In this document: piece by piece, positions 11,311 to 22,865 of the stretch | Numbering within the stretch: position 1 is the first letter of the stretch | How the letters are laid out: every line of letters starts with the position of its first letter | DNA from: a virus | Taxonomy: Duplodnaviria > Heunggongvirae > Uroviricota > Caudoviricetes | Virus record (IMG/VR): IMGVR_UViG_2721755643_000004 | Strand: one strand, 5' to 3' | Length of the DNA: 45,530 nucleotides | The notes under the pieces: generated by a model | What the model was told of the DNA's origin: nothing | The model's input: the letters and a program-made list of their open reading frames with translations, nothing else | The model's database searches: none | Position numbers and translations under genes: made by a program

Positions 11311-11664
11311 TTAAAGCTTCCTCTGGTTCTTGTTGTAAACAATAACAACAAGGCTTCGCGTTGTCCACAGCTACAACATTTTGATATTGATTCTGCAAGT
11401 CCGGGACGTTACACTGTTCCGGCACCTTATAAAACGGGTGCCGGGATTTGCACCCCGGAATTGATCAAGGCGATATACGACGCGCCAGCGTCTTTTTTAT
11501 CGTCCACGCTCACGCACGCCAGAATTATGGTGGGCTGGGCAGGGGAGCCGAAAGGCTCGCCGGTTTCCTTGATCGCCGGTAGTGCAAACCCTGTTCAGTC
11601 CGCCACCAGCGAGATTTGCACCTCCGGTGGTGGAAGTATTTCACCGATCAAGGAGGCTGCCATT

Positions 11665-12396
11665 ATGGCTACGATCCCAGTTTCCCCATTCCTCAAAATC
11701 GAAGTCGTCAACGGTAAGGCCGTTACTACATCTCTTTTCGGATATCTCAAACTGTTGCGCCTTGCTGGTGTTCCGGGTTATATTTCTCGCGTTGCTGTAA
11801 ATCCAGCAACCGGGCTTCGCATCCCGAAACATCACACAGGGCTGACACGCCATAAGCGTGTTTTTTTGTCTACGCACGTCTATTCAATGGCGGCTCAGAT
11901 GGGAGCTTCTTCGGAAGCGCCGGTTTTCCCTTGTGTGTCCGGTAATGCGAATCCTGTCTGGGCTGCCACCAATCATGGTTTCGCATCCGTGGGTGGTAGC
12001 TGTAAAGCACACACACAAGGGGCTGTCACCATGACTACCACCACTACTCACCCATTCCTCAAAATCGAAGTCGTCAACGGCAAGGCCGTTATTTTCTCTT
12101 TGCATGTGGCCTGCCACTTTAAGCGCATGCACCAGAACATCGTCGACAAAATCGAGTATCTGAACTGCTCGCGCGAATTTTTTACCCGCAATTTCATACC
12201 GGGTACTTACCACATCTATGACGACTCTCTGCGTGGTTATTACATCACCCTTGATGGTCTGATGCTGCTTCAGCTTGGGTTAAGTCTGCGCACAATGCGG
12301 TACTACGAGAGTTGCATTGAAGCGTTCCATGAGGCTGAAACCAGCCTGAATCATACCGCTTTCCGTCGTAATCAATGGGAGGCGCGTCATGTGTAA
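11665..12396 (+). CDS. hypothetical protein (243 aa) with duplicated N-terminal motif PFLKIEVVNGKAV; may be two fused units
   Basis: ATG with AAGGAGG RBS; second in-frame ATG at 12031 with AAGGGG RBS; each preceded by a near-identical structured leader. Confidence 0.4.
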   Translation: MATIPVSPFLKIEVVNGKAVTTSLFGYLKLLRLAGVPGYISRVAVNPATGLRIPKHHTGLTRHKRVFLSTHVYSMAAQMGASSEAPVFPCVSGNANPVWAATNHGFASVGGSCKAHTQGAVTMTTTTTHPFLKIEVVNGKAVIFSLHVACHFKRMHQNIVDKIEYLNCSREFFTRNFIPGTYHIYDDSLRGYYITLDGLMLLQLGLSLRTMRYYESCIEAFHEAETSLNHTAFRRNQWEARHV

Positions 12397-16416: not shown

Positions 16417-16659
16417 ATGACTTTTACCCCTGAACAATTGCGTAAACACGCGCAGGAAATGCTGCGTCATGCTGAACAACTCGAAAAAACGGGCATAACA
16501 AAAGACGCTATCCGTAAAGATATGGTACCCGCGCTTCGGGAACTGATGCAGGCGAAGCATCGCGCACAGAAAGCAGTAGATGAGCTGGTGGACTGTGTGG
16601 CAGAGCTGGAAACCAGAGTCGGAAAGTTTGAAAAACTGGTGCAGGAGGTGCTGCGCTGA
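16417..16659 (+). CDS. hypothetical coiled-coil protein (80 aa)
   Basis: ORF between helicase and Q-like gene; start uncertain (TTG 16402 or ATG 16417). Confidence 0.45.
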   Translation: MTFTPEQLRKHAQEMLRHAEQLEKTGITKDAIRKDMVPALRELMQAKHRAQKAVDELVDCVAELETRVGKFEKLVQEVLR

Positions 16660-17030
16660 TGCGTGATATTCAAATGGTTCTTGAACGTTGGGGGGCATGG
16701 GTGGCAAATAATCACGAGGATGTGGAATGGTCATCTGTTGCTGCAGGTTTTAAGGGATTAATCCCTTCGAAAGTAAAATCCCGCCCGCAATGTAGCGATG
16801 ACGATGGCCTGATCATTAGCTCTGCGATGACAGTTCTTAAGAAAAAGGAACCGTATCAATACGAATTACTGGAAATGTATTATGTGTATGGGGTTACATT
16901 ACGGGCGTTGGGGGTAAAACTGGGGATATCACTTAATCAGGTTGTTATCAGACTGCAGAAAGCTGAAGGGTTTATTGACGGTTGTCTGGCAATGTTGGGG
17001 GTATCTTTAGAAATTGATTGTTACATATAG
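16659..17030 (+). CDS. putative late antiterminator Q (QuuD-like, 123 aa)
   Basis: Position before late/lysis region; recalled resemblance to DLP12 QuuD; not verified. Confidence 0.5.
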   Translation: MRDIQMVLERWGAWVANNHEDVEWSSVAAGFKGLIPSKVKSRPQCSDDDGLIISSAMTVLKKKEPYQYELLEMYYVYGVTLRALGVKLGISLNQVVIRLQKAEGFIDGCLAMLGVSLEIDCYI

Positions 17031-18353: not shown

Positions 18354-19412
18354 ATGAAAAATACTGTAAAAATAAACAGTGTTGATTTAATCAACGCTGA
18401 TTGCCTGCATTTTATTCAGTCCCTGCCTGATGATTCCATTGACCTGATTGTTACAGATCCGCCGTACTTCAAGGTGAAACCCAACGACTGGGACAATCAG
18501 TGGAAAGAGGACGAAGATTACCTTAAGTGGCTGGACCACTGTCTGGCCCAGTTCTGGCGGGTGTTGAAACCTTCCGGAAGTCTTTACCTGTTCTGTGGTC
18601 ATCGCCTGGCATCTGATATCGAAATCATGATGCGTGAACGCTTTAATGTGCTGAACCACATTATCTGGGCGAAGCCGTCCGGGCGCTGGAACGGGTGCAA
18701 CAAGGAAAGCCTGCGGGCGTATTTCCCCGCCACAGAGCGCATTCTGTTCGCGGAACATTATCAGGGGCCGTATCGTCCAAAAGATGATGGCTATGAGGCG
18801 AAGGGCAGGGCACTGAAACAGCATGTGATGGCTCCGCTGATTTCTTACTTTCGTGATGCGCGTGCGGCTCTGGGGATAACGGCAAAACAGATTGCTGATG
18901 TCTCAGGAAAGAAAAACATGGTGTCGCACTGGTTCAGTGCCAGCCAGTGGCAGTTACCGAACGAGGATGATTACAGAAAACTTCAGGTGCTGTTTGCCCG
19001 GGTGGCAGAAGAGAAACATCAGCGGGGTGAACTGGAAAAGCCACATCACCAACTGGTCAGCACATACAGTGAGCTGAACCGGCAGTATGCCAGCCTGCTG
19101 GAAGAGTACAAATCCCTGCGGCGTTATTTTTCCGTATCGGCAGCCGTTCCTTATACGGATGTCTGGACGCACAAGCCTGTGCAGTATTATCCGGGCAAAC
19201 ATCCCTGTGAAAAACCGGCAGATATGTTGCGGCAAATGATTACCGCCAGCAGTCGTCCGGGTGACCTGGTTGCAGATTTCTTCATGGGGTCCGGTTCGAC
19301 AGTCAAAGCAGCGATGGCGCTGGGGCGTCGTGCAATTGGTGTCGAGCTGGAGGCTGAACGTTTTGAGCAGACCGCAAGAGATGTACAGAATTCAATCAGA
19401 AAGAGAGAGTGA
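18354..19412 (+). CDS. DNA methyltransferase (N6-adenine/N4-cytosine class), orphan (352 aa)
   Basis: Motif IV DPPY near N-terminus and motif I FFMGSGST near C-terminus; no adjacent restriction endonuclease ORF. Confidence 0.85.
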   Translation: MKNTVKINSVDLINADCLHFIQSLPDDSIDLIVTDPPYFKVKPNDWDNQWKEDEDYLKWLDHCLAQFWRVLKPSGSLYLFCGHRLASDIEIMMRERFNVLNHIIWAKPSGRWNGCNKESLRAYFPATERILFAEHYQGPYRPKDDGYEAKGRALKQHVMAPLISYFRDARAALGITAKQIADVSGKKNMVSHWFSASQWQLPNEDDYRKLQVLFARVAEEKHQRGELEKPHHQLVSTYSELNRQYASLLEEYKSLRRYFSVSAAVPYTDVWTHKPVQYYPGKHPCEKPADMLRQMITASSRPGDLVADFFMGSGSTVKAAMALGRRAIGVELEAERFEQTARDVQNSIRKRE

Positions 19413-19452: not shown

Positions 19453-19528
19453 GGCCCTTTAGCTCAGTGGTGAGAGCGAGCGACTCATAATCGCCAGGTC
19501 GCTGGTTCAAGTCCAGCAAGGGCCACCA
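19453..19528 (+). tRNA. tRNA-Ile2 (anticodon CAU, lysidine type; could be scored as Met)
   Basis: Cloverleaf with anticodon loop CUCAUAA; close to E. coli ileX by recollection; CCA encoded. Confidence 0.8.
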
Positions 19529-19529
19529 A

Positions 19530-19606
19530 CCACCACTAGCTCATCCGGATAGAGCATCAACCTTCTAAGTTGACGGTGCGAGGTTCGAGTCCTCGGTGGT
19601 GGGCCA
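19530..19606 (+). tRNA. tRNA-Arg (anticodon UCU)
   Basis: Acceptor CCACCAC/GTGGTGG; anticodon stem TCAAC/GTTGA, loop CTTCTAA; T-arm GGTTCGAGTCC. Confidence 0.8.
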
Positions 19607-19608
19607 GC

Positions 19609-19684
<76 letters not shown>

Positions 19685-19687
19685 TAT

Positions 19688-19762
<75 letters not shown>

Positions 19763-20043: not shown

Positions 20044-20376
20044 TGTACAGCGCTCGGTATGTGTGAGCTGGAAATCAGATTTTGCATGGACTGGAATCAT
20101 GCTGTTATTTAGGGGCGAAGAACTGGCTTTTTCTTCCGCCTTCTCACCAGTAACGATTAGAAAAATAATGAAATGCCCCCCTCCGGGGAGGAGGACCGTA
20201 GAAAAAAGGACCCGCCAGCAAAAACATTGGGGATGAACAGCTTTCGCTACTCAGATTGCTGGCGGGTAAAGTTCCTCATGAATTAAGAATGCTACGCGAT
20301 CTTTTTTAATGGAAATGAAAATTATTGTCAATTAGTCGTGCGTGTTTTTTCATACAATATTGGTAAAGGTGATTCA

Positions 20377-20408
20377 GGCCATCAGAGTTTTGCTGATGGC
20401 CTTTTTTC
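20377..20408 (+). terminator. rho-independent terminator just upstream of holin gene (tR'-like)
   Basis: AGGCCATCAG-AGTTTTG-CTGATGGCCT followed by TTTTTT. Confidence 0.7.
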
Positions 20409-20442: not shown

Positions 20443-20658
20443 ATGTATCAGATGGAAAAAATATCAACAGGCATTGCCTACGGCACCTCCGCCGGCAGTG
20501 CCGGCTACTGGTTTTTGCAGTGGTTGGATCAGGTCAGTCCATCACAGTGGGCTGCGATTGGTGTGCTGGGAAGTCTGCTTCTGGGGCTTCTGACTTATCT
20601 GACGAATCTGTATTTCAAAATAAGAGAAGACAAGCGTAAGGCTGCGCGGGGAGAGTAA
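20443..20658 (+). CDS. S: class II holin, phage-21 S-type pinholin (71 aa)
   Basis: Dual-start motif [10 protein letters not shown]; two TM segments; recalled similarity to S21. Confidence 0.85.
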
Positions 20659-20662
20659 TTCA

Positions 20663-21193
20663 ATGACACAAAACTATGAACTGATTGTGAAAGGGATCCG
20701 CAATTTTGAGAATAAAGTTGCGGTAACTTTAGCGTTACGGGACAAAAAACGCTTTGACGGTGAAATTTTTGACCTGGACATCTCGCTGGACCGTGTTGAA
20801 GGTGCCGCGCTGGAGTTTTATGAGGCAGCGGCCAGAATGAGAATCAGACAGGTATTCCTGGATGTTGCTGCCGGGTTATGTGAAGGGGATGAGCAGTCGC
20901 CGGAAAAGCGCCCCATAATTTTAGAGGCGCAGAATGTGTGGATAACCTACAAAGGAAAGCTACCGGGAAGAATTACTGGTTCTCTGAAGACGCCACCGAC
21001 GGCATTGCGGTCAGAAAAAGATGATATTGAATCGCCCATTGAAAAACTGGAGAAAAAATTGTCGGTGCTGATTCCTTCTGAAGATGAAAAAAAACGCCGC
21101 GATGAGCAGTTTGCGGCGTTTTACGATTATTGCATTGAAGTTACTCGCAGGAATTTTGTGAAGATTTTTGAGGAGGGTAAATCTCTTCAGTAA
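20663..21193 (+). CDS. hypothetical acidic cytoplasmic protein (176 aa) inserted between holin and endolysin
   Basis: RBS GGGGAGAG; begins 5 nt after holin stop. Confidence 0.6.
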   Translation: MTQNYELIVKGIRNFENKVAVTLALRDKKRFDGEIFDLDISLDRVEGAALEFYEAAARMRIRQVFLDVAAGLCEGDEQSPEKRPIILEAQNVWITYKGKLPGRITGSLKTPPTALRSEKDDIESPIEKLEKKLSVLIPSEDEKKRRDEQFAAFYDYCIEVTRRNFVKIFEEGKSLQ

Positions 21194-21407
21194 GCTTAAT
21201 GGCGGACGCTGCAATTAATTCAGGAAGGTCCGCAAGGTCATCTGTCAGTGGATATGATGAAAAATCGGCGGCAGTTCTGTTAAGAAGCGCTTTAACTAAT
21301 TCCTTTTCCTTCTCCGGCAACAAGTTGATTAGAGCTACGACTGCTTGCCTGAGTGCGATTAAATCAGCAAAAGTTTGTTTTGGTAGATTTGTGTAATCCG
21401 TAGTCAC
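21141..21407 (-). CDS. hypothetical protein (88 aa, GTG start), convergent with 20663..21193
   Basis: ORF protein-like but weak RBS; 3' ends overlap 53 nt. Confidence 0.3.
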   Translation of the reverse strand: MTTDYTNLPKQTFADLIALRQAVVALINLLPEKEKELVKALLNRTAADFSSYPLTDDLADLPELIAASAIKLTEEIYPPQKSSQNSCE

Positions 21408-21514
21408 CTCTGTGTTTATCAGATTGACATCCTCCTCCCGCCAGTGCCCATCACTGGCGAGGTAAGATTTAACATATCCGGGGATTTGAAGCCGATAAAT
21501 CCTGATAAATATCC

Positions 21515-22048
21515 ATGAACGTAAAAATCAGATATGGCCTGTCGGCTGCCGTTCTGGCACTGATTGCTATCGGTGCGCCTGCGCCTGATATTCTCGACCA
21601 GTTTCTGGATGAAAAAGAAGGTAACCACACTACGGCATACCGCGATGGTTCCGGCATCTGGACCATCTGTCGGGGTGCCACGATGGTGGATGGTAAACCC
21701 GTTTTTCCCGGTATGAAACTGTCGAAGGAAAAATGCGACCAGGTTAACGCCATTGAACGTGATAAGGCGCTGGCATGGGTGGAGCGCAATATTAAAGTAC
21801 CACTGACCGAACCACAAAAAGCGGGTATAGCGTCATTTTGCCCCTATAACATTGGCCCCGGTAAGTGTTTCCCGTCGACGTTTTATAAGCGGCTGAATGC
21901 CGGTGATCGTAAGGGCGCATGCGAGGCGATTCGCTGGTGGATAAAAGATGTTGGGCGCGATTGCCGCATACGTTCAAATAACTGCTATGGACAGGTTATT
22001 CGTCGTGACCAGGAAAGCGCATTAGCCTGTTGGGGGATAGATCAATGA
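21515..22048 (+). CDS. R: endolysin, T4-lysozyme-like muramidase with N-terminal signal-anchor-release-like segment (177 aa)
   Basis: Hydrophobic N-terminus; catalytic E-x8-D-x5-T pattern ([16 protein letters not shown]). Confidence 0.85.
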
Positions 22049-22512
22049 GCAGAGTCACCGCGATTATCTCCGCTCTGGTTATCTGCATCATCGTCTGCCT
22101 GTCATGGGCTGTTAATCATTACCGTGATAACGCCATTACCTACAAAGAGCAGCGCGACAAAAACGCAAGAGAACTGAAGCTGGCGAACGCAACCATTACT
22201 GACATGCAGCAGCGCCAGCGTTCTGTTGATGCACTCGATGCTAAATACACGAAGGAGTTAGCTGATGCGAAAGCTGAAAATGATGCTCTTCGGCGCAAGC
22301 TTGATAATGGTGGTCGGGTGCTCGTCAAAGGAAAATGCCCTGTGCCAGCCTCAGCCAAAACCTCCAGCGCCTCCGGCATGGGCAATGATGCCACCGTCGA
22401 ACTCTCTTCAGTTGCTGGACGAAACGTTCTCGGTATCCGGGACGGAATTATCCGCGACCAAACAGCACTGAGAACGCTTCAGGAATACATCAATACGCAA
22501 TGCCTGAATTAA
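22045..22512 (+). CDS. Rz: i-spanin Rz (155 aa)
   Basis: N-terminal TM helix, coiled coil, overlaps endolysin 3' end. Confidence 0.8.
22265..22471 (+). CDS. Rz1: o-spanin Rz1 lipoprotein embedded in +1 frame of Rz
   Basis: Lipobox VVGC followed by Pro-rich segment; entirely inside Rz. Confidence 0.7.
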
Positions 22513-22553: not shown

Positions 22554-22865
22554 ATGAAAATTTATATTGCCGGGCCAATGACGGGATATGAGAACTTTAA
22601 TCGTGACGCCTTTAATAAAGAGGCAGATCGTTTGTCACGACATGGTCACTCTGTCTTGAATCCAGCCACTTTGCCTAATGGTCTGACACAACGTGAATAC
22701 ATGGATATTTGCTTTGCAATGCTTCGTTGTGCGGATGCTATTTTGATGCTTCCTGGCTGGAAAGCGTCTGCTGGAGCAACTGCTGAGTATCATTACGCAT
22801 ACAAGATGGAGATGCCGGTATTCACTACGCTGAATTACCCGCCAGCTTGTTCCTCTGCAGTATAA
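22554..22865 (+). CDS. hypothetical protein, DUF4406-like (103 aa)
   Basis: MKIYIAGPMTGYENFN N-terminus; moron position after lysis genes. Confidence 0.55.
   Translation: MKIYIAGPMTGYENFNRDAFNKEADRLSRHGHSVLNPATLPNGLTQREYMDICFAMLRCADAILMLPGWKASAGATAEYHYAYKMEMPVFTTLNYPPACSSAV

Follow-up and report, generated by a model that had tools for sequence, protein, structure and literature searches.

In phage 21 itself, the lysis genes S, R and Rz are contiguous. The Qin prophage of Escherichia coli K-12 has the gene order essQ, ydfR (b1555, P76160), rrrQ and rzpQ, with a 4-nt gap between the first two; its YdfR is a protein of 103 amino acids (aa) with a short final helix, and the ydfR stop codon overlaps the start of rrrQ. 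In Escherichia phages 2H10 (gp52) and PhiR63_1, a 183-aa YdfR is combined with a gene of family phrog_2572, and Stx2a-converting phages carry a 213-aa protein after S and a small convergent open reading frame (ORF) ahead of R. Our literature search found a single functional study of YdfR, which concerns the K-12 protein, and no paper on the genes between S and R. In that study (Göpel et al., RNA Biol 2026; PMC13232886), a two-hybrid screen picked out ydfR's first 72 codons, and the encoded segment (residues 1–72) interacted in the bacterial two-hybrid assay with RNase G and with RNase E's N-terminal half (residues 1–597). Strep-YdfR co-purified RNase E 1–598 together with DNase-resistant nucleic acid, and by the authors' account the RNA may have come from a contaminant; overexpression of YdfR altered few transcripts and caused no growth defect (PMC13232886). 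The evidence for RNase E binding comes from the cryptic-prophage copy of K-12 only, as tagged and overproduced protein, and T4 Srd was cited as an earlier case of a phage protein binding RNase E in its N-terminal half (PMC13232886).

We analysed a stretch of 45,530 nucleotides (the window), which belongs to an E. coli lambdoid prophage; its 2.1-kb lysis region matches the chromosomes of strains RMDEC364 and VL46 with 100% identity. A preliminary description, made from the sequence alone, had pointed to genes of unknown function between the holin gene S and the endolysin gene R, and the coordinates, spacing and overlap of the 176-aa ORF, the convergent ORF and the spacer are as described there (Table 1). 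Two genes do occupy this interval, and the 176-aa one is a YdfR-family (DUF1327) gene that is already named and known. Its product scores 136.2 bits against the Pfam profile PF07041 (DUF1327/YdfR; gathering cut-off 25, E 4.4e-40), with residues 1–112 spanning profile positions 1–92 of 93, and is matched end to end by phrog_2091 (E 1.6e-103). These matches and the synonymous excess described below place the ORF far beyond chance. The identical protein (P0001) is present on 463 public contigs, where it bears the name 'YdfR family protein'. The second gene belongs to phrog_2572.

Table 1 Features of the lysis region of the window and of its surroundings
Feature	Position	Strand	Basis or remark
Q antiterminator gene	16659..17030	+	Pfam PF06530 Phage_antitermQ, E 4.5e-48; upstream of the lysis genes
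Terminator-like GC-rich hairpin, then T run	20376..20402	+	Consensus scan; 40 nt upstream of S
S21-type class II holin (pinholin family), 71 aa	20443..20658	+	PF04971 'P21 holin S', E 1.5e-35; phrog_9876 and phrog_20 'holin'
YdfR-family (DUF1327) gene, 176 aa, intact ORF	20663..21193	+	PF07041; phrog_2091
Conserved N-terminal domain of YdfR, residues 1–73	20663..20881	+	AlphaFold2; counterpart of the RNase E-binding region in K-12 YdfR
Variable module, 489 bp: YdfR residues 113–176, convergent ORF and the upstream region of that ORF	20999..21487	.	BLAST breakpoints
Convergent 88-aa ORF, GTG start	21141..21407	-	phrog_2572; shares 53 nt with the 3′ end of the 176-aa ORF
Spacer ahead of R, 107 bp	21408-21514		
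Perfect 8-bp inverted repeat (CGCCAGTG cccat CACTGGCG)	21439..21459	+	Within the spacer upstream of R
R endolysin (phage lysozyme)	21515..22048	+	PF00959, E 7.3e-24; phrog_7 'endolysin'
Rz i-spanin	22030..22512	+	PF03245, E 2.4e-30; phrog_13 'Rz-like spanin'

The window has the gene order of Qin, and its R is 93% identical to K-12 RrrQ. Residues 1–72 of the window protein agree with K-12 YdfR at 56 of 72 positions (78%; tblastn gives 77% over residues 1–74). The two loci differ downstream, where in the window protein a linker leads into another C-terminal module, after which come the convergent ORF and the spacer; because these two intervene, the YdfR/R stop–start junction of K-12 is absent. 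2H10 and PhiR63_1 have the same three-part layout as the window, with a YdfR 92–95% identical and a reverse ORF about 98% identical to those studied here. Relative to these phages, the window protein is shorter by seven residues (GSVADLN, an in-frame 21-nt deletion) and the reverse ORF has ACG instead of ATG. Downstream, the N-terminal segment of R is weakly hydrophobic, as is typical of SAR endolysins, and we would assign R to that class by analogy with R21; an embedded 68-aa ORF (22265-22471) that contains a lipobox-like MVVGC probably encodes the Rz1 o-spanin.

The 176-aa ORF begins after a 4-nt spacer (ttca) past the holin stop, and a GGAG Shine–Dalgarno sequence lies at 20650-20653, inside the end of S. 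This placement, with the Q gene upstream, fits the co-transcription with the lysis genes that had been proposed: ydfR would be transcribed together with S, R and Rz as late transcription from a Q-dependent promoter reads through into the lysis genes, and would be translated from its own Shine–Dalgarno sequence. The strong hairpin ahead of S (a 10-bp stem with 6 GC pairs and a TTTTTTCTTTC tail in the consensus scan) is a candidate late-operon terminator that Q-modified polymerase may read through.

The preliminary description regarded these genes as an unusual insertion into a contiguous S–R–Rz cassette and called for a comparison with related prophages; the comparison overturned that view, since the insert is common there and is also present in Qin. 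A search of 5426 complete E. coli genomes located DNA encoding the YdfR N-terminal domain in 4030 of them (7990 places, up to nine per genome) and the matching R allele in 4334 (9861 places). Among GenBank phages, tblastn found this holin type in 436 records and a YdfR relative in 106, which include many Stx1a- and Stx2c-converting phages. In all fetched loci that extend far enough upstream, YdfR comes directly after the holin and ahead of R, and 90 of the 92 fetched loci with a YdfR N-terminal domain have both an S21-type holin and the 4-nt S–YdfR spacer; of the other two, one is cut at a contig end and one (L068) has YdfR after a different, 101-aa holin. An occupied S–R slot is ordinary among E. 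coli prophages, and the cassette is not unusual: the region is the usual place for accessory genes in lambdoid pinholin/SAR-endolysin lysis cassettes of E. coli. For annotation, the feature is routine and is no marker of an unusual lysis cassette. The family as a whole is narrow all the same, with 73 clusters at 50% identity among 1.84 billion proteins. Among 185,579 species representatives, a survey with the narrower of two alignments (the broader one, with members 31–39% identical, lacked a searchable conserved stretch) found YdfR only in Escherichia/Shigella and on two MAG contigs that are probably E. coli contamination.

The PGAP annotation of an identical genome flags codons 1–112 as 'pseudo, missing C-terminus' and has nothing on the reverse strand. 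Taken at face value, this would make the region decaying or non-functional, with YdfR a truncated pseudogene and the rest non-coding, a reading with which the lost ATG of the reverse ORF and the 3 of 34 distinct YdfR alleles that are frameshifted or truncated in related loci would also agree. However, the other 31 distinct alleles are intact, as is the 176-aa ORF, the exact protein of which recurs on the public contigs; the difference between the 176- and 183-aa forms is an in-frame 21-nt indel; phrog_2091 covers both parts of the protein; and synonymous changes are in excess in both, at 52 of 113 in residues 1–112 (23.6% expected, p 1.5e-7) and 7 of 16 in residues 113–159 (20.7% expected, p 0.03) across related loci. 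Given the intact ORF and alleles, the in-frame indel and the synonymous excess, we judge YdfR to be a real gene and not a pseudogene, and decay of the region to be highly improbable. The 'pseudo' flag is best read as an artefact of a reference length mismatch and is likely to be a mis-annotation. In the NCBIfam library, YdfR, the reverse ORF and the holin have no match, and R reaches its model only below the cut-off (69 versus 315 bits). The locus should be labelled as a YdfR-family gene, not a pseudogene, together with a start-codon-defective phrog_2572 gene. The encoded protein had been called acidic, which holds only mildly (pI 5.5, with 32 D+E versus 30 K+R).

The C-terminal part of YdfR and the convergent ORF lie in a mosaic segment with sharp edges. 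Compared with loci that encode a 116-aa YdfR (L073), homology extends from S to 20998 (codon 112) and returns at 21488, 27 nt before R; these loci have 51 nt in place of the variable module. Compared with K-12, which lacks the module, homology breaks off at 20868 and is picked up again at 21505. The tail module and the reverse ORF always occur together, in 69 of the 69 loci that carry either one among 85 surveyed. Of the 5426 complete genomes, 363 contain the module (282 with a coverage of at least 80%), which amounts to about 5–7%; it is also in 8 phage records. The tail segment is also part of 183-, 211- and 296-aa YdfR variants, is joined to an unrelated N-terminus in one protein (P0161), and occurs without the DUF1327 domain in the 213-aa protein of Stx2a phages. 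In the 296-aa variants (phrog_1085) and the Stx2a-phage protein, which occupy the same slot, a coiled segment corresponds to window residues ~120–171 with 62% identity. The 296-aa variants have an extra C-terminal domain (phrog_26186) that is missing from the window, and the Stx2a-phage protein, entirely devoid of the DUF1327 N-terminal domain, is followed by a convergent 104-aa ORF (phrog_1853) that resembles the window in arrangement but is unrelated to its reverse ORF. Residues 113–176 are a swappable tail, predicted to be mostly helical, that recombination has shuffled between members of the family.

An 88-aa ORF by itself is not beyond chance in 45 kb. This one, however, matches phrog_2572 with E 8e-53, its residues 4–88 spanning profile positions 2–86 of 86. 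In relatives the convergent gene encodes 86 aa (hypothetical protein WP_001306174.1 in strain BEN5202), its indels are in frame, and 62 of 69 related loci have a conserved GAGG(T/C)G Shine–Dalgarno sequence placed four bases ahead of an ATG; of the 24 distinct sequences, 21 start with ATG (plus-strand CAT). At the place of the canonical ATG (21401-21399 on the minus strand), the window reads ACG (CGT at 21399-21401 of the plus strand), as do six other loci. The GTG that opens the 88-aa ORF lies two codons upstream of the ACG, overlaps the Shine–Dalgarno sequence and is GCG in many relatives, and so is not conserved. The 'GTG start, weak RBS' of the preliminary description therefore reflects an ATG that has turned into ACG: relatives have a real gene of 86 aa, and the ORF here is a start-codon mutant of it rather than a marginal ORF arisen de novo. 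Because the ATG is lost and the GTG is not a conserved alternative start, the copy in the window is probably silent, at least as regards normal translation.

The minus frame has a GC content of 0.53 at first and 0.37 at second codon positions, like the neighbouring genes, whereas an antisense 65-aa ORF on the plus strand shows the reverse (0.36 versus 0.56). This pattern, the Shine–Dalgarno sequence with ATG, the protein-like composition and the PHROG family lead us to prefer the minus strand as coding. Synonymous changes make up 14 of the 34 variable sites of the reverse ORF (23.5% expected, p 0.017), a count to be read with the fact that the wobble positions of the minus and antisense plus frames coincide. 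We also tried the substitution pattern as a guide to the coding strand of 21199-21396 and discarded it, as the plus-strand 65-aa ORF yields the same synonymous count. AlphaFold2 predicts three helices (residues 10–29, 32–50 and 58–76; mean pLDDT 72), on which basis the reverse ORF is a putative gene for a small three-helix protein. A fold search against the PDB gave no match (best E-value 5.3), and Pfam, NCBIfam and PADLOC gave none either; at E <= 0.1, Pfam did not bear out the label 'DUF1823' that the PhiR12 phage records carry. A consensus scan, which weak promoters would escape, found no sigma-70-like promoter at 21408-21514 on the minus strand and no terminator after the reverse ORF. The phrog_2572 family is small and shallow, with 18 clusters, almost all from E. 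coli. Mosaic breakpoints, the linkage of tail module and convergent gene, the start-codon loss and the likely pseudogene mis-annotation are what our analysis adds to the description of the locus.

The way in which the 489-bp module moves as one between sharp recombination breakpoints, and the presence of a non-homologous convergent pair (the 213-aa protein and the 104-aa phrog_1853 ORF) in the same slot of Stx2a phages, could be taken to mean that the tail module and the convergent ORF form an independent 'moron'-like unit that contributes, for example, to anti-defence, to superinfection exclusion or to the fitness of the lysogen and is under antisense control through the 53-nt 3′ overlap. The weak signal of purifying selection on the reverse ORF would agree, but the substitution test behind it fits the minus and antisense plus frames alike. 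Such a unit is also at odds with flanks that lack promoter- or terminator-like sites in the consensus scan, with a reverse ORF that lacks PADLOC, Pfam, NCBIfam or structural matches and with the tiny, shallow family to which it belongs; and, whatever its function, the unit is probably inactive in the window, where the start codon is gone. We consider this reading quite unlikely. At E <= 0.01, PADLOC, a library outside which anti-defence proteins fall, gave no match for YdfR, for the reverse ORF or for their Stx2a-phage counterparts.

YdfR is a soluble cytoplasmic protein as far as its composition and predicted fold indicate. It has no membrane segment, transmembrane or amphipathic (the maximum Kyte–Doolittle value over a 19-residue window is 0.83), and no lytic enzyme domain, with no match in a lysis category of Pfam or PHROG; the PHROG families of both inserted genes are classed as 'unknown function', not 'lysis'. 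The structure prediction that the preliminary description had suggested was informative for the N-terminal domain and much less so for the tail. AlphaFold2 is confident for residues 1–73 only, which form a predicted soluble β3-α unit of three strands (5–14, 18–27 and 34–43) and one long helix (50–73), with pLDDT values of 72–88 per 10-residue block over residues 1–70; values for the linker and tail are under 50, the exception being a long helix predicted at 140–174. Residues Y5, E6, L7, G47, Y53 and E54 of the N-terminal domain are conserved. A search for a solved homologue by PDB sequence returned PARP-1 matches alone, which are not significant (E 0.048–0.07), and Foldseek against the PDB reached a best E-value of 0.06. 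A giant G2F-repeat protein (P0192) with a weak match to YdfR residues 7–58 was set aside as a compositional or beta-repeat coincidence.

YdfR is not a core lysis protein, given that it has no hydrophobic segment and no lytic domain and is missing from about three-quarters of the phages with the same holin. On this point the preliminary description, which suggested an accessory function, is supported. It could still be a lysis regulator, that is, a cytoplasmic modulator of pinholin triggering or of SAR-endolysin release that sets the timing of lysis. Its invariant place right after the holin with a 4-nt spacer, the overlap of its stop with the start of R in K-12 and its confinement to lambdoid lysis cassettes would all suit such a role, as would the accessory SAR endolysin regulators of other phages (Mu; PMC9239132). 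Rare holin–YdfR fusions (P0090, P0096 and P0109), which arise through a 1-nt shift in the GGGG run that ends S, point in the same direction, but their number is small, and they may reflect decay or sequencing errors in the homopolymer. Set against this are the lack of a transmembrane or amphipathic membrane segment, the many GenBank phages that have the same holin type and no YdfR, the PHROG classification, and the finding that overexpression of K-12 YdfR gives no growth or lysis phenotype (PMC13232886). A lysis regulator is therefore an unlikely reading of YdfR. Of the two functions first suggested, lysis timing and anti-defence, neither gained direct support: a membrane segment, an overexpression growth defect and a PADLOC match are all wanting.

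We favour a reading in which YdfR of the window is a late-expressed cytoplasmic accessory protein that binds RNase E, RNA or both, because the region through which K-12 YdfR binds RNase E is 78% identical here; by analogy with that protein we give this reading a probability of roughly 0.4. For the conserved β3-α domain, the most likely partner is the host's RNase E in its catalytic N-terminal half, perhaps along with RNA, so that the protein may tune RNA turnover late in infection rather than disrupt the envelope. The convergent three-helix gene would travel with the tail module and, through the change from ATG to ACG, would probably be silent here. Other phage proteins that target host RNase E are T4 Srd, phiKZ Dip (gp37) and T7 gp0.7, for which a functional analogy to YdfR is only possible. 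YdfR shows no sequence similarity to any of the three, and we found no fold homology with Srd or Dip. The K-12 homologue binds the N-terminal half of RNase E, like T4 Srd (PMC13232886), and Dip binds the C-terminal scaffold (PMC4980113). Unlike these three proteins, YdfR is encoded by a late gene of a temperate phage.

More speculatively, the YdfR family might consist of genus-restricted late proteins of temperate phages that bind RNase E at its catalytic half, and perhaps late mRNA as well, and so reprogram RNA decay shortly before lysis, with exchangeable C-terminal modules and convergent antisense partners that diversify or regulate them. The most frequent 'y-gene' of E. coli lysis cassettes would then be a new kind of phage RNase E modulator, and we hold the idea to be tentative and on balance doubtful. 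Most E. coli genomes contain YdfR, frequently more than once, within the lysis operon of lambdoid and Shiga-toxin phages. If the RNase E binding seen in K-12 reflects a role in the phage cycle, YdfR would act widely as a modulator of host RNA decay in the late phase and, if so, could affect late-gene expression, including that of stx in Stx phages.

Two further points concern the surroundings of the gene. The tight embedding of ydfR between S and R suits a lysis-related role equally well, which counts against the RNase E model. In the spacer ahead of R, the perfect inverted repeat is not an intrinsic terminator, as it is without a T run. An Rfam search of the region gave nothing at the gathering score and only chance-level matches at E <= 1, none of them to the repeat. 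The variants of the repeat (21458 C>T and 21452 C>T) retain G–U pairing in the plus-strand RNA only.

The gene ydfR, which encodes the 176-residue YdfR-family (DUF1327) protein, is linked to its slot between the holin gene S and the endolysin gene R and not to one holin family. On a single IMG/VR contig (L068 2677-3516), YdfR follows a different 101-residue holin-like membrane protein that is not of the S21 type. The slot can also hold other genes: in the Stx2a-converting phage Stx2_12E129_PPompW (L086 1546-3393) it is occupied by a 213-residue protein that lacks the DUF1327 domain and is equivalent to positions 117-296 of phrog_1085, the last two thirds of the long YdfR variants. There, a convergent 104-codon open reading frame (phrog_1853), unrelated to the convergent frame of the window, precedes R. 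The layout of a forward gene plus a convergent one therefore recurs with different content.

The 176-codon ydfR frame is intact and conserved, contrary to its RefSeq/PGAP annotation, in which the identical gene (L001 3264-3599, corresponding to window 20663-20998) is labelled a 112-codon pseudogene with a truncated C terminus. Three public proteins (P0090, P0096 and P0109) are in-frame holin–YdfR fusions with the junction ...AARESNSMTQ..., the corresponding region of the window being 20648-20662, from the end of S to the start of ydfR. Such fusions would arise if the GGGG stretch at the 3′ end of S lost 1 nt; they could be true variants, products of decay or homopolymer sequencing errors. A 3,128-residue public metagenome/genome protein with 14 G2F-domain repeats (P0192) gave six weak matches to the three-strand region of YdfR (residues 7-58; 32% identity, summed E 2.9e-7); these are probably a beta-repeat coincidence.

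The Qin-like E. coli essQ-ydfR-rrrQ cassette is also present on two contigs from metagenome-assembled genomes that are GTDB representatives, labelled Veillonella parvula (L091) and Bacillota (L093). In L091 the proteins have the same identities to the window as in L090, a locus on a complete E. coli chromosome, and both contig cassettes are probably binning contamination.

Ahead of R, for which no obvious Shine–Dalgarno sequence was found, lies a perfect hairpin that, as read from the sequence, has no T run (see table). Because the natural variants 21458 C>T and 21452 C>T leave the stem paired, as G-U, in the plus-strand RNA only, they hint that the late transcript is structured before R.

Features of the window around the lysis genes and in the early region
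Feature	Coordinates	Strand	Position or support
isrK Hfq-binding sRNA, two in tandem, C4 antisense RNA after each	11422-11973	+	Rfam
DNA methyltransferase gene	18354-19412		5′ neighbour of tRNA cluster
Four phage-borne tRNA genes (CAT, Arg-TCT, Thr-TGT, Gly-TCC)	19453-19762	+	ARAGORN / PGAP
Perfect 8-bp hairpin	21439-21459		55-75 nt upstream of R
DUF4406 gene (nucleoside 2-deoxyribosyltransferase-like)	22554-22865	+	E 3.7e-34

Immediately 3′ of the spanin gene Rz and ahead of the small terminase subunit gene, the DUF4406 gene is a further accessory gene of the late operon. The tRNA cluster separates the methyltransferase gene from the lysis genes; its CAT tRNA is assigned to Met by ARAGORN, whereas PGAP assigns it to Ile in the annotation of an identical genome. 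All four isrK and C4 RNAs, which lie within the prophage early region, exceed their Rfam gathering scores in a search of the window.
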